Shown here: in pieces, positions 3,485 to 43,882 of the stretch | How positions within the stretch are numbered: position 1 is the first letter of the stretch | Layout: each line of letters begins with the position of its first letter | IMG/VR virus record: IMGVR_UViG_3300017913_003170 | Location: 1-56,183 of that record | Source: a virus | Lineage: Duplodnaviria; Caudoviricetes | DNA: 56,183 nucleotides | Direction: 5' to 3' (one strand) | Notes under the pieces: generated by a model | Databases searched by the model: none | What the model was told of the DNA's origin: nothing | Seen by the model: only the letters and a program-made list of their open reading frames with translations | Position numbers and translations under genes: made by a program

Positions 3485-3489
3485 TCAAA

Positions 3490-3495
3490 TAAATA
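3490..3495 (+). promoter_or_regulatory. Late promoter TAAATA for the 3517-7276 operon
   Basis: AATAAATACT followed by an AGGAG RBS and ATG 3517. Confidence 0.7.
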
Positions 3496-3516
3496 CTAGT
3501 AACCAGGAGACTTACC

Positions 3517-15069: not shown

Positions 15070-15153
15070 GCTCGCTTCCCTCTCCACGTAATAGGCTACA
15101 TCACTCTCGTCATGTTGCTACTATTTATACAAAAGTATCTGCGATTAGATTAG

Positions 15154-29359: not shown

Positions 29360-29407
29360 TTTTTACGCTCCTAATGGTTCTCACATCATAATATCTGATA
29401 TAGTTAT

Positions 29408-32400
29408 TTATGCACTACCAAAACTTATCGAACTGACATAATCGCCATCCGCAAGCTCAATACTGAACAATAACTGATTACCTGTTGCATTGGACAAGTT
29501 TTCGCTACCCAATGTCAACTCAAATGTTTGATTGCTAATAACAGATCCAGTGGTAATAGTGTCTCCAGATGTTTTAGCACATCCGTTTGAACCGTTACCA
29601 CCATTGGCAGTGTCGCTGCCCGGTACACCACTACCGGCATATGGAACAGTTGCATCTAGCCAACCTCCCAATCCGCTAGCATCATCAATACCTGTACCCG
29701 GAGCTGCTATTTTGAATCCTGAAATTTTTCCTGTAATCGTTACAGAAAAGTTTGCCACCAGTGTTCTGCGGAACGCACCTCTAAAGTACTGTGTTCCACT
29801 TCTACCTGTTGCTAGATCTGGTCCTGCTGGCAAATATCCGCTGCTCAGATCTGTGTCAAAATGTTTTAGTTCTCCAAACCGTACAATAGCATTGTCTGTA
29901 CCTGCTACTGTTTGACTACCACTCCATGCATCGCCTGTATAGTAGTTGGTTGTTGAAGTGTAAGCAGGAGTAGCGCCGCTCAATGTGCTCATAACAACAC
30001 GCTTGGCATTGTCTGTAAATCCGCTGCCCAATCCACTTACTGTAATATCACCTTCGTCAAATCCACTGAGGCTTTGACTGTATAGTTGTATTTTTGTTGG
30101 CAATGTAACATAGCTGCCGCTGCCGTTTACATTGTTACCTCTCATGCGTATTTGACCAACTGCACGTGCACTACCATTGATGTTCACTATCAAATCGCCC
30201 ATACTGTACGCTGTACCATTTCCTGTATCTGCATTCGGAATACCACTGGTCAGAAATGTTGTTGTTCCGTCAATGTCGCTGTAACTTTTGTTTTGTGTGT
30301 TTACAAGACTGCCACTAGTGCCTTCGTCGTTGCTGGCATGCACAAAGGTCAACACTGTGCTGGTATCTCTGTAGGTTTGTCCAATAAAGTTGTCAATTGT
30401 AGCACCTGCAATTTGAATTGCACCGCCGCTGTTGTAATATTCAACTCCGCTGATGTATCTTTTTGTACCTGCACTGCTTTCAGTCATTGTAACACTGCTT
30501 ACGTCAATGGTAGGTGTAGCAGTTAAATCATCTTTGACAAACTCCAGTACGTTTGTATTACCATTTGTGCTGTGTTGCAATTGATAACTGTTTATACCAT
30601 CACTTACTGCACTGGCTGTCTTTGAAATTCTAGCTTTGAAAACTCTGTAAAAATTGTTTGGATACGTACTTCCACTTGAGTTCTGTCCGCTGCTGTTTAC
30701 AGCATTTGCGTCGATGTCTTCTGTTACTACCAAACTCAAATTGGTTCCTGCATTGTTGCTGCTGGTAAATGTAATTGCACCATCTGCACTGCCATTGACC
30801 ATTGCAGTGAGTGTACCGCTGGCAGCGTTGTATGCATATGTGCTCAATATGTCAGACTGTATTGTACCACTGGTGTCGGTTGTTCTGTTTACATCATCAC
30901 CCGAGCTTACAGTAGCACCGCCACTGACATGATCAGTAGCGCCATGTGCAAGTTTTGGACTGGTACCTGTGTCTTCGCTAGTAAACGTCAATGTTTTACT
31001 GTTCAATCCTTGTGGTGCACTTGGTGTTGGTAATATTTGCACACTGAAGTTTTCAGTATCATCAGATGCATTGGTACTGTATGTACTGTGGTAGGCTAAC
31101 AAGCTACCGTTGTATGTTCCAGTACCGTCACTGGTATAATCATGTGTTTGGCTGGCAGTAGTTGTTACTGCGTCAGTTTCGCCGTCGCCCCAAGTCCAGG
31201 TATAGTTGGTAGCATTTTCACTGGTGTTTGTGCCTGTAACTTCTGCATAGTTGTTGCCATCATATCCAACAAATGCATATCCTCTAGTGTCGCTTGCACC
31301 ACTGATACCTGTTGCTTCGTTGGTAAACACCACACTTACATTGGCACGTGGATCTGGATTCACTGTGATAGTGGTTGCACTGCTAACAAACGGACTGCTG
31401 CTGTTTCCTGTGTTACAGGTAAGTGTAACATCAAATGTTTCGCCTACTGCTCTGTCGCTAAGATCAAAAGTGTGTGTAATAGTTTGGCTTGTATCACCAC
31501 TGGCACCGCTGCCGATATTCACAGTGTTGCTTGTACCATCATCCCAGTCCCAAACATATGTTTGTTGGTTACCAAATGTGCTTCTGCTACCAGGACTGCC
31601 TGTTGTGTTGTTTGTAAATGTAACAACCAAACCATTGGTTGCTTCTTCGTTATTGCCACTGGTAACATCTGCACTAAAGCTAGGTGAAATAGTGTTTTCG
31701 TAAACTTTGAAAGTTTTGCTGGTGTTAGTTGGAATATCGTCACTTGCAGCACTACCGTGTGCAGTCACTTCAACATCGACTGTGAATGTAGTATCGCCGG
31801 TAACAGTTGAATATGTGTGGCTCAATCTTGCACCATCTCTACCACCAGCATCGCTGTCGCTGCTCACAGTATCAGTGTTGCCGTCGCCCCAATCAATAGT
31901 GTATTCTACTGTGTTGGATAGCCCTGCTGCTGCACCTGTGTTTGTTGTCAAGTTTTCCAAGTAAACTGTGCTGCCTTCGTCAACTCCGTCAGATGTAACA
32001 TCAGTGCCTCCAGTCGAAGCACTCCATAGTTTGAAATCAACCACAGGTGTGGCTGTAGCAACTGTAACCATGTTTGTGTAAATTCTCTGTGCAGTTGCAT
32101 TATTGCCTGTACCATCAGTGTTGGTAGCATCCACTGTGACTGTAAAGTTACCACCGCTGGCATAGTTGTGTGTAAATGTTGTGCTGCCTGTGTTGTCAGA
32201 CCCAGTTGTTACTGTATTATCCGCGGCTTGCACGCCGTCGCCATAATCAATTTCAATTATGTCTGGATTACCATACCAGTTTACTGTGAATGTAATATTT
32301 TGCAATGCAGGAGGTGTAGCATTGCTCACTGTTGCACTAACATCACGTACATATGTATTTCTATACACATTCAACATTGCTTCGTTGAGAATATCAACTG

Positions 32401-33583
32401 CATCGCCAACCATTGTGCTGGAAACCAGTCCAGTTGCAGCACCGTCACGTGTTCCAGTATAACTGTCAACGCCTGGTGTTTTGAAATATGCACCGTCAGT
32501 AGGAGTACCAATTTGAACACTACCACCACCACCGCTGATGGCACTGTCTACATATGCTTTTGTGGTTGCATCTGTAGTGGCTGTAGGTGATGCTAGATTT
32601 GTAATTCTATTGCTGCTTACATCAATGTTGCCAGTTGGATTGATTGTGAGATCACCTGCACTGGTTTTTATTTGACCAGTGTACACTTCTGCCATTTGAG
32701 CAGTGCTGCTACCTAGGTCATATGTGTCATCTGTGGTTGGTACAAGATCTGAACTGATGGTAGCATCAACAACAAGAGTATCTCCGTCTCCGCCTGCACC
32801 AAGTGTGATATCACCCTGTGCAATAATATCGCCAGTTGCTCTAATAGTACCAGTTACATCAAGTGTGTATGCTGGAGAATCTGTGCCAATGCCTACTTTG
32901 CCGTCGTTTTTGATAACAACACGTCTTTGACCAGCTGTAAAGAAATCCAATTCGTCATTGTCGTTACCGGCACTGTCTTCTGCACTGATATAGGTATCTT
33001 GATCAACATCCTTGACACCACCCAAGCTGCCCCAAGCTGTGCCGTCATAACCTTCAAATGTAGTATCGTCGCTGTTGTAGCGAATCATGCCCTGTTCAGG
33101 TGTACTTGGGCGTTCAGCTACTGTGCCAACTGGTAGTACCAGTGCACCTGTCATGTCTATTTCAATTACATCACTGCTGTGATCCAATGTGCCAACACTC
33201 AACGTGCCAGCGATTGTAGTATCACCAGTGGTTTGATTGATTGTAAATTCTGTAAGATTTGTACCAAACGAAAGATTACCGCTAGCGTCAATGTTCAGTC
33301 TAACTTCGCTAGTGGTTGTACCTGTATACAGATTTATCTGATTGGAAACATATTCATCTTTGCTGAGGTTACCATCTTCGATAGTACTGAATGTAACCCA
33401 TTGTGTTCCGTCATAGGCTTCATACTGGTTAGTTGTTTCATTGAATCTAATTTGACCTTCTGCTGCGGTAGGTCTTTGTGCTGTTGTACCAACTGGAAGT
33501 ACAATACTTCCAGTGTCGTCAAACTTCAACGTCCCAGTGGACGTGTGTATCCTATGTTGTCTGTGATCAAAATTTATGGACAT
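29408..33583 (-). CDS. Fibre/adhesin-like structural protein with multiple PKD-like domains (1391 aa)
   Basis: LPVGTTAQRP...GQIRFN hinge motifs; IDYGDG, IDWGDG, WDWDDG, WTWGDG PKD-like motifs. Confidence 0.75.
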   Translation of the reverse strand: MSINFDHRQHRIHTSTGTLKFDDTGSIVLPVGTTAQRPTAAEGQIRFNETTNQYEAYDGTQWVTFSTIEDGNLSKDEYVSNQINLYTGTTTSEVRLNIDASGNLSFGTNLTEFTINQTTGDTTIAGTLSVGTLDHSSDVIEIDMTGALVLPVGTVAERPSTPEQGMIRYNSDDTTFEGYDGTAWGSLGGVKDVDQDTYISAEDSAGNDNDELDFFTAGQRRVVIKNDGKVGIGTDSPAYTLDVTGTIRATGDIIAQGDITLGAGGDGDTLVVDATISSDLVPTTDDTYDLGSSTAQMAEVYTGQIKTSAGDLTINPTGNIDVSSNRITNLASPTATTDATTKAYVDSAISGGGGSVQIGTPTDGAYFKTPGVDSYTGTRDGAATGLVSSTMVGDAVDILNEAMLNVYRNTYVRDVSATVSNATPPALQNITFTVNWYGNPDIIEIDYGDGVQAADNTVTTGSDNTGSTTFTHNYASGGNFTVTVDATNTDGTGNNATAQRIYTNMVTVATATPVVDFKLWSASTGGTDVTSDGVDEGSTVYLENLTTNTGAAAGLSNTVEYTIDWGDGNTDTVSSDSDAGGRDGARLSHTYSTVTGDTTFTVDVEVTAHGSAASDDIPTNTSKTFKVYENTISPSFSADVTSGNNEEATNGLVVTFTNNTTGSPGSRSTFGNQQTYVWDWDDGTSNTVNIGSGASGDTSQTITHTFDLSDRAVGETFDVTLTCNTGNSSSPFVSSATTITVNPDPRANVSVVFTNEATGISGASDTRGYAFVGYDGNNYAEVTGTNTSENATNYTWTWGDGETDAVTTTASQTHDYTSDGTGTYNGSLLAYHSTYSTNASDDTENFSVQILPTPSAPQGLNSKTLTFTSEDTGTSPKLAHGATDHVSGGATVSSGDDVNRTTDTSGTIQSDILSTYAYNAASGTLTAMVNGSADGAITFTSSNNAGTNLSLVVTEDIDANAVNSSGQNSSGSTYPNNFYRVFKARISKTASAVSDGINSYQLQHSTNGNTNVLEFVKDDLTATPTIDVSSVTMTESSAGTKRYISGVEYYNSGGAIQIAGATIDNFIGQTYRDTSTVLTFVHASNDEGTSGSLVNTQNKSYSDIDGTTTFLTSGIPNADTGNGTAYSMGDLIVNINGSARAVGQIRMRGNNVNGSGSYVTLPTKIQLYSQSLSGFDEGDITVSGLGSGFTDNAKRVVMSTLSGATPAYTSTTNYYTGDAWSGSQTVAGTDNAIVRFGELKHFDTDLSSGYLPAGPDLATGRSGTQYFRGAFRRTLVANFSVTITGKISGFKIAAPGTGIDDASGLGGWLDATVPYAGSGVPGSDTANGGNGSNGCAKTSGDTITTGSVISNQTFELTLGSENLSNATGNQLLFSIELADGDYVSSISFGSA

Positions 33584-33610
33584 ATACTTACACCTTTATA
33601 GTGTATGTAT

Positions 33611-34576
33611 TTATGCGTCGATAGTGTGTCTAATCAGCTTGATAGTAGCAGCATCAGCACTGTTCATTGTTACAAGGAATCTACAGTCAGTTCCGCTAAC
33701 ATCTGCGGTAAATGCTCCTAGGTTTCCGTTGCTTACAATTGTACCATAACCTGTGATAAACGCATCAGTACCATCACTTACAACCAAAAACTTTTGACTG
33801 TGAATACTACCACCCTGTGTAATCTGCACTGTGTATTCTGCTGTGCTGTATGTGGCATGTGCAAATGTGTCAATTGCAGTCTGTGTTGTTGTGCTGATGC
33901 TTTGTGTGCTGGTTGTTAGGCTTGCATTGCTGGTGTTCACAGTAGGAACAGTTACACTGGTTGTAATAGTAACATCATCTTCAAGACCGTATGTTACAGT
34001 ATCCGGACTGCTGACAGTTGCAGTGGTTTGGTTTGCAGCGCCTCTAAAATTGATTGTGTCTGCACCGCTGATTGTTTCAGTTAGTACACCATCGCCAATA
34101 AAAATACTTGCAACACCGCTGGATCCAATTGAATCAGCATATGCTTTGGTTACTGCGTCATTTTGGTGAGTTGGTGCAGCAACTCGCAATGGTCTGTAGG
34201 TCATTGCAATGTCGCCAGTGCTTGAACCAGTTGCTGTGGTTGTACCTACGGCAAATGCATCTTCACTTTCGTCCCAAACAAAACATGCATTGTCGCCTGT
34301 TGTGCCACGTTCAAAAATAAAGCCAACATCGTTGGTATTGGCAGCAGCAAGTCCGCTGTTCAATTCAAACAGTGTATCTGAAATTTGGCTGTTCTGTGTG
34401 TTTAGGCTGGTTTGCGTACCTGCAACTGTTAGGTCGCCTGTGATGTATACGCTTTCTTTGATAAGGTTACCGCCGTCTAAAACAACAGAACCTTCAGTGC
34501 TGCTTGCGCTGGTTGTATCCTGAAAGAAGCTACTGGTGTTGCCGCTTCCTGATGCAGTATTTCTAAAACTTGGCAT
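33611..34576 (-). CDS. Putative virion structural/fibre or decoration protein
   Basis: GFIFERG...FVWDES.D fibre motif, PT..NDAVTKAYAD motif, C-terminal domain shared with 15154..15912; AGGAG RBS and TAAATA at 34595-34600. Confidence 0.65.
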   Translation of the reverse strand: MPSFRNTASGSGNTSSFFQDTTSASSTEGSVVLDGGNLIKESVYITGDLTVAGTQTSLNTQNSQISDTLFELNSGLAAANTNDVGFIFERGTTGDNACFVWDESEDAFAVGTTTATGSSTGDIAMTYRPLRVAAPTHQNDAVTKAYADSIGSSGVASIFIGDGVLTETISGADTINFRGAANQTTATVSSPDTVTYGLEDDVTITTSVTVPTVNTSNASLTTSTQSISTTTQTAIDTFAHATYSTAEYTVQITQGGSIHSQKFLVVSDGTDAFITGYGTIVSNGNLGAFTADVSGTDCRFLVTMNSADAATIKLIRHTIDA

Positions 34577-34603
34577 GTGTAATCTCCTACCAAGTATTTA
34601 TTC

Positions 34604-34631
34604 AAAAAGAAAGACGCACAAGGCGCCTTTC
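34604..34631 (-). terminator. Intrinsic terminator of the candidate ncRNA
   Basis: GAAAGGCGC-CTTGT-GCGTCTTTC followed by TTTTT. Confidence 0.8.
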
Positions 34632-34859
34632 AAAACTTCTTTAGGAGTAATAGTGATAGGTGGGACTAAGGATTACCCACAACTGCCGCAACAAATCCTG
34701 TCATAATTTGGCAGAGCCTTGATATCTGGAAGTTACTCCTGAAATGTATCTCTTTGTCTCCAAAGTCATACACTGCCACCACAGCTACCAATCCAAGTTA
34801 ATGCCTTTGTAAAGCATCGTTTCCTTGCACTATCTAACTTAGACCGTCGTCTTTGTTAT
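34604..34859 (-). ncRNA. Candidate ~255 nt structured ncRNA with several pseudoknots
   Basis: Own promoter and terminator, no credible ORF, at least eight hand-checked helices with G-U pairs on the minus strand, one GNRA-capped hairpin. Confidence 0.7.
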
Positions 34860-34865
34860 GTTTAT

Positions 34866-34894
34866 AATATAGTGTTTCTGTATCCAAAAGTCAA
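34866..34894 (-). promoter_or_regulatory. sigma70-type promoter TTGACT-N17-TATATT driving the candidate ncRNA
   Basis: 5/6 at -35, 17 bp spacer, 5/6 at -10, AT-rich upstream tract. Confidence 0.75.
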
Positions 34895-34924
34895 CCAAAA
34901 AATGCAACTTTTTTATCTTTTTTC

Positions 34925-34955
34925 AAAAAAAAAATGGGCCACCGAAGTGACCCAT
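34925..34955 (-). terminator. Intrinsic terminator after major capsid gene (cUUCGg loop)
   Basis: ATGGGTCAC-TTCG-GTGGCCCAT followed by a T run of about 9. Confidence 0.92.
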
Positions 34956-34980
34956 CTTTGAAAGTTGTATAAGCCTAAAC

Positions 34981-36138
34981 TTATGTGAAGCTTAGGTTGC
35001 CGCTGTTGATTGTGATACCTTCAACGTAGTCAGCTGCGTTACCTAGTGAGCTTGCTTGGTTTGTTAGTTCAACATAACCGTAGCGTGTCATAAAGCTAAC
35101 AACTGGCTCGAATGAACTTGGGTCCATTACAACGCCTGAGCTCATTAGTGGGATGTATGGGCAGTAGTATGCTGGTGCATCCATTTCGCCTGAGCCTTTG
35201 TAACCTACAAGTGCTACTGTTGAGTCACTTGCGTACTGGTCTACATATACACGCATTGTGCCGTTTAGTGTACCAACGAATTTTGTGTTTGTTGGTGCTT
35301 CAAATGGGCCTTCTGTTGTACGTGCAAATGCTGATGTTGTTGCTGACTGTAGTACTGTTAGCATTGCTGGTGATACTACTAGGTAGTTACCTGCGCCGCG
35401 ACGTGTACGAGCTGCAATTAGGTTTGCTGCACGGTTGACTAGAACTGCAAATGCTGCATGTTCGTCACCAACGAATGTAGCTGTACCTGATACACCTGCT
35501 TGGTTGTATGTTAGTGTTGGAGTACCGGCTAGTGTACGTAGAGAGTTGATGATCTCTTGGTCGATTTCAGCAGTAATCTCTTGTGCTAGTGCAGCCATGA
35601 TTTCTGCTTCAACGTCTAGGCCGTGCATTGAGTTAGCGTCTTGCGCTGCTTCGAATGTCCAACGTGCTGATAGTTTGCGTGTTTTAGCTTCCACGGTCTG
35701 CTTTAGAACTTGGATGCTTAGTTTTGCGCCTGCTTCTGCTTCTAGCGAACTTGTTGACGCTGGAGCGTTTGCAGAACTATCGCCTGAATAGTTACGAGCG
35801 ATTAGGAACGGTGATAGTGCCTCGTCGCCGCTTGTTGCTGTGTCTTTTGTTTCAGCATAACGAACACGTAGTGTGTGAATCTGGCCTACTGGACCAGTCA
35901 TTGGCTGAACACCAACTAGCTCGTTAGCGATAACTGTTGGCATAACACGGCGAATGACAGGAAGAATAACTTTGTTTAGAGTTGCAATGTTACCAGCCAT
36001 TGTTGTGCCGGCGTCTGCAGTCTCTGTCAAGTATGATTTTGTGTTTTCTAGAACACTTTCCATAACTTGTTTTTTGTTACCCTCTAGGCCATCAACCAGT
36101 GCTTCTCTTGTTTGATTCCAATTTTCAAAAAGGTTCAT
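34981..36138 (-). CDS. gp23: Major capsid protein
   Basis: LPVIRRVMPTVIANELVGVQPMTGPVGQI, VEAKTRKLSARWTFEAAQD, YYCPYIPL, SFEPVVSFMTRYG. Confidence 0.97.
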   Translation of the reverse strand: MNLFENWNQTREALVDGLEGNKKQVMESVLENTKSYLTETADAGTTMAGNIATLNKVILPVIRRVMPTVIANELVGVQPMTGPVGQIHTLRVRYAETKDTATSGDEALSPFLIARNYSGDSSANAPASTSSLEAEAGAKLSIQVLKQTVEAKTRKLSARWTFEAAQDANSMHGLDVEAEIMAALAQEITAEIDQEIINSLRTLAGTPTLTYNQAGVSGTATFVGDEHAAFAVLVNRAANLIAARTRRGAGNYLVVSPAMLTVLQSATTSAFARTTEGPFEAPTNTKFVGTLNGTMRVYVDQYASDSTVALVGYKGSGEMDAPAYYCPYIPLMSSGVVMDPSSFEPVVSFMTRYGYVELTNQASSLGNAADYVEGITINSGNLSFT

Positions 36139-36156
36139 TGGATTATCTCCTAAAAA

Positions 36157-37263
36157 TTATGTGCGGATACCCGCCAGTTTGCGAAGGTTGATAATTTCAG
36201 CCTGTGTTTCGCCTGATTCAGACGTTACAGCGGCTTTGTTACCTGTGAACTCAGTCTTCTGAGATTCATTTAGTGTGGTTTTTGATGCTTTTGGTGCAGC
36301 GTCTTCTCTTAGTACACTTGGTAGGTACTTTTTGAACTGTGCTGCTAGACGATCTGTTTGAACTGATTCAAGTAGGTCGCCCATGATTTCACGCTTGTCT
36401 TTAGCAAGCGGTGACATCAATTCACCGAGGATCTTCTCACGTTGTGAACGGCTTTCCATTACTTTTACAGCTTGTTTAGATTCTGCAATCATAACATCTT
36501 TGTCGTTCAGTTGCTGCTCTGCTTCTTTTAGCAGATCAGTCATTTCCTCAATTTTCTTGGAAAGTTTTTTCACTTCTGTGCCTTCAGCTAGATAGCTTGA
36601 CATAAATTCACCTGCAAATGTTTCGAAAATCTTACGTCCGAATTCATTTTCACGTGCTGTTTTGATATCTTCTTTCAACGTAGCTAGTTCAGATACAAAA
36701 CCTTGTGATACAACGTTGTGTACTTTGTCTGATGCTTGCTTGATGAATGTAGCTTTGGCTTCTTCAATTACTTTCTTTCCTTCTTTGATCATTTTGACTT
36801 TTTGTTCAACTAGTGAACGCTTGTCTTCATGAAATTCATTTAACTCCTTAGTGAGTTGCTCGATCGCAAAGCCTTCAAGTTTAGCCATTTTATTGGCTTG
36901 AGCTGTACGATCTTCTCTCAGTTCGGAAATTTCCTTCTTGAGAGTTTCCATAATGAATTTGTTTAGAACCTGTGCATGTTCAGCGATTGCTTTTTTATAA
37001 GCAACACGTTCTTCTGCAACTGCCTTTTTGTCTTCATTGAACTCAGTAAGTTCTTTGACAATGACATCACGTAGCATTTTGTCTGCTGCCTCAACAATTT
37101 GTGATTTGTCGTGGTCATAACGTGAAGCAAATTCTTCACGTAGTTCTGATGTGATCTCTCTACGTGCTTCTTCTACTTTTGCTTCAAATGCTTCGCTTAG
37201 GCTTGTTCTTACTTCTTCGGAAAGCACCTCGGAGCCTAGAAGTTCTTCAAATGCATGAGCCAT
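36157..37263 (-). CDS. gp22: Prohead core scaffold protein
   Basis: Coiled-coil E/K-rich protein between protease and capsid; GRKIFETFA.EF motif. Confidence 0.85.
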   Translation of the reverse strand: MAHAFEELLGSEVLSEEVRTSLSEAFEAKVEEARREITSELREEFASRYDHDKSQIVEAADKMLRDVIVKELTEFNEDKKAVAEERVAYKKAIAEHAQVLNKFIMETLKKEISELREDRTAQANKMAKLEGFAIEQLTKELNEFHEDKRSLVEQKVKMIKEGKKVIEEAKATFIKQASDKVHNVVSQGFVSELATLKEDIKTARENEFGRKIFETFAGEFMSSYLAEGTEVKKLSKKIEEMTDLLKEAEQQLNDKDVMIAESKQAVKVMESRSQREKILGELMSPLAKDKREIMGDLLESVQTDRLAAQFKKYLPSVLREDAAPKASKTTLNESQKTEFTGNKAAVTSESGETQAEIINLRKLAGIRT

Positions 37264-40733: not shown

Positions 40734-40786
40734 GAGAGATCTCTACTGTTATAATATGTTATTTATGCGTGGATGTCAACCTGCTA

Positions 40787-43838: not shown

Positions 43839-43882
43839 TATAAATATACTGTACGGACATGTGTCCGCTACTTGTATTTATA
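43839..43882. promoter_or_regulatory. Two opposed TATAAATA late promoters flanking the palindrome CGGACA-TG-TGTCCG
   Basis: TATAAATA on + at 43839-43846, on - at 43875-43882; inverted repeat at 43854-43867. Confidence 0.75.

Follow-up and report, generated by a model that had tools for sequence, protein, structure and literature searches.

The pRNA of phage ø29 is a small phage RNA with a promoter of its own; it has a link to head morphogenesis and forms oligomers by pairing between loops of different molecules, and this pairing covaries. ROOL and GOLLD are structured RNAs of unknown function, borne by phages and prophages, which form RNA-only multimers. Here we describe an RNA element found in a 56,183-nucleotide (nt) stretch of viral DNA (IMG/VR virus record IMGVR_UViG_3300017913_003170, positions 1 to 56,183; from here on the window means this whole stretch). 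The element lies behind the gene encoding the major capsid protein, its core covers 205 nt (34650..34854), and its sequence places it, as a divergent member, in the known manA RNA family (RF01745) and not in a new RNA class. The genes around it are all on the minus strand, as are the features described below between the capsid gene and the next ORF.

The manA RNA has been an orphan since 2010, listed as a riboswitch candidate without a ligand (PMC2864571, PMC9964418, PMC7779021, 10.1101/2020.02.04.933952). A preprint of July 2026 (10.64898/2026.07.01.735769), which also names ROOL and GOLLD as large ornate phage-associated RNAs, reports that manA RNAs annealed in 10 mM Mg assemble in vitro into octamers, decamers and an icosahedral cage of 60 subunits. 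As its text describes them, these assemblies are pentamer-based, involve L5-L7', L8-L9' and L3-L8' kissing loops together with a GNRA L6-receptor contact, and come without a biological setting. What is added here is a large divergent branch of the family, mostly beneath the Rfam cut-off, and, as a new carrier, marine jumbo phages, where the RNA sits in the head-gene module. Moreover, the dedicated promoter, the own terminator, copies flanked by transfer RNAs (tRNAs) and the lack of an antiterminator argue for a free trans-acting RNA over a leader.

The window was scanned twice against Rfam. With the curated gathering thresholds there were zero matches in the window; with E-value reporting up to 10 over positions 34400-35100, manA RNA matched 34854..34650(-) over positions 1-192 of the 192 of the model, with 44.2 bits and an E-value of 2.4e-10, and the second-best match in the region had an E-value of 0.53. 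When the 53 base pairs of RF01745 are mapped onto the window 47 are canonical, and the architecture of nine helices is present: P1 comes first, and P2 then encloses P3, the P4 sub-junction that contains P5, P6 and P7, and finally P8 and P9. The conserved upper-case positions of the consensus are matched in the GACG of L1, the AGUG junction, the UAA in P3, the GUGGUG of L5, the GNRA loop L6, the AGG junction and, in P9, UUGU-GGGUA..UCCCACC (UGUGGGUA..UCCCACC). The departures from the consensus concern the ACCA of L7, where the window has GUAACU, and the CUGAAUAA junction, where it has GCAAGGAA in place of GaCUGAAUAA; in addition, P6 of the window is longer by 5 base pairs (bp).

A covariance model built from the window's clade only, with the canonical manA members left out (R1), gives the core of the window 201.7 bits. 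This model also finds the canonical manA RNAs of the cyanophages S-CREM1, P-SSM4 and P-SSM2 (51.3, 42.1 and 39.7 bits, E-values 1.1e-16 to 1.7e-12), at coordinates agreeing with their Rfam matches of 96.6, 184.1 and 181.6 bits. Five of the 25 IMG/VR homologues scanned (L013, L010, L039, L040 and L107) exceed the gathering score of RF01745. Because of the full-length Rfam match, the homologues above the cut-off and the reciprocal R1 matches, the element is treated as a divergent manA branch which, lying mostly under the Rfam cut-off, is therefore mostly missed by routine annotation. An initial annotation made from the letters alone had placed the RNA in no family and had itself named assignment to a known family as grounds for refutation; by the assignment to RF01745, the reading of the RNA as one outside the known families is refuted.

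The organisation of the unit is that of a small gene. From the capsid gene, which ends 118 nt before the RNA, the order in the 3' direction is a 13-pair terminator, a promoter, about 255 nt of RNA lacking a convincing open reading frame (ORF), a 9-pair terminator, an AATAAATAC box, AGGAG and the ATG of an ORF of 321 amino acids (aa). The terminator of the capsid gene (34959..34930), a hairpin followed by a T-run, is the upstream insulator of the unit. The sigma-70-type promoter (34866..34896) consists of GG and TTGACT (34894-34889), a 17-nt spacer and TATATT (34871-34866), and the primary transcript predicted from it (34604..34860) would start about 7 nt past the -10 box and end in the T-run of the unit's own terminator (34604..34631), a hairpin formed by GAAAGGCGC/GCGUCUUUC (34631-34609) followed by UUUUU. 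Within the unit there is no meaningful ORF, only a 41-aa frame started by TTG; moreover, the length differences among the homologues are not multiples of three, and the median length of their stop-free stretches is 44 aa.

Taken by itself, the promoter of the window would not stand out, as 7 promoter-like sites occur in 33000-37000 and 7.1 are expected. Of the 75 loci with enough sequence upstream, however, 69 have in the 55 nt preceding the RNA a site that scores at least 10/12 to TTGACA-N16-18-TATAAT, as compared with 47 of 2903 control windows of those loci (1.6%), and the distance from promoter to P1 is fixed whatever lies upstream. Perfect TTGACA/TATAAT hexamers directly precede the canonical manA of P-SSM4 and P-SSM2, so the window resembles these in having a sigma-70-type promoter upstream as well as a marine phage as carrier. 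An own hairpin with a T-run follows P2 in 32 of the 38 capsid-adjacent loci having 3' sequence, and two of the six such loci that lack it run directly into a tRNA; in an earlier terminator scan, 42 terminators had 37 distinct stem sequences. Since promoter, fold and terminator are all conserved, it is the relatives that show the unit to be real, the statistics of the window alone being weak.

Past the terminator, the AATAAATAC box (34594..34602), which lies outside the RNA, resembles the late promoter of T4, TATAAATA. Of the 14 NATAAATAN boxes in the window, at least 10 precede by 13-60 nt the start of a same-strand ORF of at least 90 aa, and a late-type box is present within 160 nt downstream of the RNA in 54 of 69 relatives. 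The ATAAATA box is probably the late-promoter element of this phage, and because it recurs before large ORFs of the window, the 321-aa gene would have a signal of its own. Boxes were located at 1454-1462, 2255-2263, 3488-3496, 15121-15129, 29404-29412, 33607-33615, 34594-34602, 40759-40767, 43839-43847 and 43874-43882; ATAAATAC alone occurs six times in the window against 2.2 expected.

A stand-alone gene in this clade is supported by this arrangement of sequence signals, and is at odds with the Rfam label of manA, 'Cis-reg'. The window does not show the cis-regulatory placement in a 5' untranslated region (UTR), as the terminator and the late-type box intervene before the next gene; canonical manA is placed in the 5' UTR of metabolic genes, whereas the window copy has its own terminator and stands behind a capsid gene.

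With regard to these signals the initial annotation proved accurate. All the strings it quoted are present where it had placed them on the minus strand, and a consensus scan located its TTGACT-N17-TATATT promoter, capsid-gene terminator and own terminator at 34894..34866, 34959..34930 and 34631..34609. Its naming of the capsid gene as gp23 agrees with the Pfam match (Gp23, 6.7e-99), and the unit lacks any meaningful ORF, in line with its description as ORF-less. Its description of a compact tertiary-folded RNA with a host-type promoter and a terminator of its own, insulated from the capsid gene, is supported by comparative conservation, far more firmly than by the single sequence.

The nine-helix manA fold is strongly conserved and covarying in the clade. 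When 18 sequences are aligned by MAFFT, without regard to structure, the Rfam-derived structure has 80.6% of its cells paired, compared with 37-46% in slid controls, and double changes occur in 46 of 60 pairs (0/500 shuffles as high). A set of 69 distinct further sequences reaches 81.4%, compared with 38-45% in the controls, and 48 of 59 pairs show both-sided changes, this alignment being model-fitted and so favouring the structure. RNAalifold, applied to the MAFFT alignment, independently recovers P2, P3, P4, P5, P6 and P9. The single-sequence fold of the window has a z score of -1.38 and 19 of 200 shuffles fold as well.

The helices, each resting on the RF01745 alignment together with covariation, are numbered from 5' to 3' with L6 as the GNRA loop, as in the text of the preprint. 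P1 is the hairpin AGAC/GUCU with its GACG loop (34841..34852), where double changes are found at 6/6 pairs, and P2, the closing stem of the entire fold, pairs GAUAG (34830..34834) with CUAUC (34655..34659). P3 (34794..34827) is a hairpin with the base CAAG/CUUG, the internal loop GAAACG, the stem AUGCUU/AGGCAU and UACAA as L3. The P4 stem UUGGUA/UAUCAA (34719..34791) is built around P5 (GC/GC with UGUGGUG as L5; 34775..34785), P6 (GUGUAU..AUACAU extended by CUUUG/CAAAG, with the GNRA loop GAGA; 34744..34773) and P7 (CAGGA/UCCAG with GUAACU as L7; 34726..34741). The hairpin P8 (34682..34715) has the outer stem CUGCC/GGCAG and a large interior or apical L8, and the clade poorly preserves the inner stem that the Rfam model gives to P8, with 31.5% and 51.6% of its cells paired in two alignments. 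The last hairpin, P9 (34660..34680), consists of GUGGG/CCCAC and the 11-nt L9 UAAUCCUUAGU.

Three long-range loop pairings also covary. The L3 segment ACAAA (34806..34810) is complementary to UUUGU on the 3' side of P8 (34691..34695); this pairing is present in 83.7% of cells against 63.7% in shuffled controls, with 0/500 shuffles as high and double changes in 5/5 pairs. Between L5 and L7 88.5% is paired, and one pair splits into AU 8, GC 7 and GU 4. The L8 segment AGGAUU (34694..34699) is complementary to AAUCCU of L9 (34669..34674). In the column-based test this last pairing reaches 55.5% against 44.8%, a figure blurred by loop-length variation, and for this reason an alignment-free test was preferred in which the duplex energy of each loop with its own partner is compared with that obtained with a permuted partner from another RNA. 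The first set gave -4.35 against -3.04 +/- 0.35 kcal/mol (1/2000 permutations as good) and 62 independent sequences gave -4.38 against -3.33 +/- 0.18 kcal/mol (0/2000 as good), with a dozen different complementary cores. In the same test, four control loop pairs and the junction-L9 pair of the initial annotation showed no appreciable effect.

The structural details of that annotation fared unevenly. Its AGAC/GUCU, AUGCUUU/AAGGCAU, GNRA hairpin and GUGGG/CCCAC correspond to P1, P3, P6 and P9 of the Rfam model and, like P2, are supported by compensatory changes among homologues. GAUAG/CUAUC is indeed a covarying pairing (P2), nested as the closing stem and not crossing as had been thought. The CUAAGUUA/UAACUUGG helix finds weak support (71.9% against 67.8%, 3/500 shuffles as high) but competes with the base of P3, CAAG/CUUG, which is compensatorily changed in L040, L054, L071 and L044. 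The stem of about 15 bp rich in G-U pairs, although contained in the minimum free energy (MFE) structure of the window, is paired no more often than when shuffled (60.2% against 60.9%). The same holds for the crossing pairing AAGGA/UCCUU (54.3% against 54.2%), and AGGAGUAA/UUACUCCU reaches 42.5% against 39.0% with no covariation. The multi-pseudoknot idea thus holds only in a changed form, the covarying long-range pairings being L3-P8, L5-L7 and L8-L9; two of the three crossing pairs proposed for it are not conserved.

Homologues were sought by several routes. Among 80 IMG/VR loci whose capsid proteins share 72-90% identity with that of the window, 23 carry one 3' of the capsid gene. None of the four cultured capsid relatives does (0/4): in Vibrio phage 2.275.O, Phosso, PA5oct and CBB just about 100-150 nt follow the capsid gene, and R1 gave no match near it. 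Over whole records R1 gave a single match, in PA5oct (13.8 bits, E-value 0.004), which was taken as chance. When IMG/VR was scanned for two invariant motifs at least 119 stretches were found, and R1 confirmed 75 of the 79 new loci among the motif-scan matches listed; after removal of duplicates the set comprises at least 76 distinct loci, namely the window and 75 further homologues. Among the loci listed, 44 of the 76 copies are on the same strand downstream of a capsid gene.

In cultured phages the canonical manA of S-CREM1, P-SSM2 and P-SSM4 makes the family experimentally accessible. Three further cultured phages, Syn9, S-PM2 and S-RSM4, gave no manA (0/3). A blastn search of 34560-34980 against 50,697 cultured phage records returned just two spurious 50-nt matches, and a search with the S-CREM1 manA returned only the match to itself. 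When 185,579 prokaryote genomes were scanned with a pattern, the 31 matches were close in number to the chance expectation for 19 fixed bases, and none of them was confirmed by R1. In P-SSM4 (L212 1085-1258), the 57-aa 'hypothetical protein' PSSM4_169.1 (record positions 164884-165057) lies almost entirely within the 184-bit manA (164829-165014) and is probably a spurious ORF call.

The comparisons demonstrate family membership, the covariation of the fold and the conservation of promoter and terminator, and we lean towards seeing in the unit an autonomous small-RNA gene encoding a divergent manA, that is, a discrete RNA that acts in trans and probably self-associates. The sigma-70 promoter (34894..34866) would start an RNA of about 255 nt whose 205-nt core would fold into the P1 hairpin and the P2-closed junction with P3, the P4 sub-junction (P5, P6 and P7), P8 and P9. 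The self-contained terminator (34631..34604) would end it, the next gene being served by its own late-type ATAAATA box past the terminator. The RNA would then accumulate as a discrete stable species and act in trans as a compact particle, and from the complementarity of its loops it probably self-associates through L5-L7, L8-L9 and L3-L8 contacts. The covarying contacts supply concrete compensatory mutants with which assembly could be examined.

Several points weigh against an autonomous, self-associating RNA. The 44.2 bits of the window are below the gathering score of RF01745 (55.2), and the complementarity between L5 and L7 in the window is just 3 bp (GGU:ACU). Covariation looks alike for an intramolecular pseudoknot and for kissing between molecules, and the loop permutation tests are inflated by shared ancestry. 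Oligomerisation of manA is known from an unreviewed preprint, in vitro and for other members (10.64898/2026.07.01.735769), and the correspondence of our helix numbering to that of the preprint is inferred from its text, where L6 is the GNRA loop. Outside the capsid neighbourhood 20 of 31 copies are without a terminator, and about 14 of those 20 lie 57-83 nt before one conserved gene of about 300 aa, resembling a 5' leader; likewise the canonical manA of P-SSM2 stops 15 nt before purL. The manA family may thus be used both ways, stand-alone and as a leader. Finally, assembled RNA-library contigs cover the capsid gene and not the RNA of the window. Two of them (X12 and X15, from one sample) end at 34951/34960, which is a weak hint only; the pieces that fall on the RNA measure 33-50 nt at 34650-34702, have loose ends and come from relatives, and X18 and X19 add none. 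These contigs are evidence neither for nor against transcription of this copy.

The copies that resemble leaders form a second class of context (L107, L092, L116, L160, L161, L128, L156, L115, L125, L091, L158 and L130). They have the same promoter and a manA-like RNA but lack a terminator, a TATAAATA box abuts P2, and the gene of about 300 aa begins with MNTSIAALKRSKSNLD... or MSFANLKRSRGNFD...; from its appearance by eye this gene is a candidate T4-type gp32.

A more specific form of the trans-acting RNA, which we put forward tentatively and consider doubtful, is a pentamer-based ring or closed cage made from its own gene and held together by the L5-L7, L8-L9 and L3-L8 contacts. By analogy with ø29 pRNA it might have a part in assembling heads or packaging DNA, or else it might enclose or sequester a host factor. 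The role in head assembly or packaging is proposed because 44 of the 76 copies sit directly behind the capsid gene, and the RNA gene of the window lies in a head module, as would suit a comparison with pRNA. However, no pRNA family is among the Rfam matches, the fold and the phage group differ, and binding to the portal or a packaging role would follow by analogy only. ROOL and GOLLD differ in being several hundred nt long and unrelated in sequence to the 205-nt core. With regard to the manA cages (10.64898/2026.07.01.735769), the loop pairs at their interfaces are complementary and covary in the window's clade; unlike the members studied according to the text of that preprint, among which this clade does not appear, the window is known from sequence alone.

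Returning to the organisation of the gene, the RNA could also act in cis, as a riboswitch or attenuator in the 5' leader of an early transcript, with the hairpin at 34631..34604 as an expression platform that would control whether transcription continues into the 321-aa gene and the large structural genes behind it. It was in 5' UTRs that manA was proposed as a riboswitch candidate (PMC2864571), and the succession of promoter, structured RNA, terminator and Shine-Dalgarno/ATG has the classical riboswitch layout; the terminator-less copies before the conserved gene and the P-SSM2 manA before purL would also suit a leader. We nevertheless judge this unlikely for the window. A mutually exclusive terminator/antiterminator pairing overlapping the aptamer was not found: the complementarity of the terminator 5' arm to the 3' half of the RNA is no better than that of shuffled arms (mean z score -0.37; 1/42 below -2), and the terminator hairpin coexists with the fold in the MFE structures of the full transcripts in 42/42 cases. 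In the window the fold is already closed by P2, 23 nt ahead of the terminator hairpin, and the late-type box follows the terminator. The literature found reports no ligand for manA, the downstream genes differ between loci, and the manA of S-CREM1 sits between tRNAs.

In this phage (L204 1133-1502) the order is tRNA-Leu, manA and tRNA-Asn, with 1 nt between the first two and 0 nt between the last two, and wcaG and abiF RNAs are part of the same array; tRNA processing should release a discrete RNA here. In L057 (4487-4558) and L105 (4366-4436) a tRNA likewise stands directly after the manA-like RNA.

That the RNA might instead be a 3' UTR or read-through appendage of the abundant capsid mRNA, stabilising it or signalling its processing, is suggested by the same-strand position of many copies 3' of the capsid gene and by the short gap in the window. 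It is nonetheless improbable, as a strong terminator precedes the RNA and the promoter keeps its fixed distance from P1 even after intervening ORFs and in 32 loci with no same-strand capsid gene before the RNA within the available stretch. A group I-intron-related or other catalytic RNA has practically nothing in its favour beyond the loose resemblance of two short strings to the group I P and Q elements, on which the initial annotation had remarked, since the 10 Rfam matches at E-values up to 10 include no group I or other ribozyme family and both strings lie in elements that manA explains (J2/3-P3 and P9).

The major capsid protein ORF (36138..34981; Pfam Gp23, PHROG 138) points to the carrier of the RNA. 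The nearest cultured relatives of its product, with 63-69% identity, are those of jumbo phages of 286-469 kilobases (Sinorhizobium phage Phosso, Vibrio phage 2.275.O, Pseudomonas phage PA5oct and Pectobacterium phage CBB). The carrier is an uncultured jumbo phage whose capsid protein is of the PA5oct/Rak2 type, unlike the T4-like cyanophages or Photobacterium that carry canonical manA. As the IMG/VR record has a completeness rating of 15%, the window is taken as a fragment of a large marine phage; the sequencing runs containing it are from seawater or marine metagenomes. In another manA-carrying contig (L096:12888-13275) there is a permuted tmRNA (transfer-messenger RNA) of alphaproteobacterial type (RF04321, 118 bits; RF01849, 98 bits), which may hint at the hosts that some carriers infect.

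The surroundings of the RNA vary between loci. The genes downstream differ, the distance from capsid gene to RNA ranges from 92 to 1296 nt, one copy is inverted, and ORFs in between, glutamine aptamers and freshwater-2 RNAs are present at some loci and absent from others. An island of structured RNAs behind the capsid gene was seen at L064:4222-4772, L036:4224-4772, L040:4642-5289, L013:2935-3335 and other loci. The glutamine riboswitch aptamer (RF01739) lies between the capsid gene and manA in 4/20 loci, and the freshwater-2 RNA (RF02980, 62-77 bits) follows manA in 6/20, just past a GATAAATAC box and before a small ORF beginning 'MGRP(I/L)NK...'. Neither of these two RNAs was found in the window at the gathering thresholds, and a literature search on the freshwater-2 RNA motif found no paper.

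The 321-aa ORF downstream of the RNA (33611..34576), with AGGAG as its Shine-Dalgarno sequence, encodes a product for which no Pfam or PHROG family was found and which may be virion- or fibre-like, according to weak leads. It shares 36% identity with its L006 homologue, and a search for related loci using this protein gave 0 relatives. Behind this gene, four very large ORFs (1391, 2383, 1732 and 1717 aa) occupy 9934-33583 on the minus strand, the first of them having a PKD domain and matches to virion-protein PHROGs. N-terminal pieces of these four proteins reappear in genes 3' of manA at other loci.

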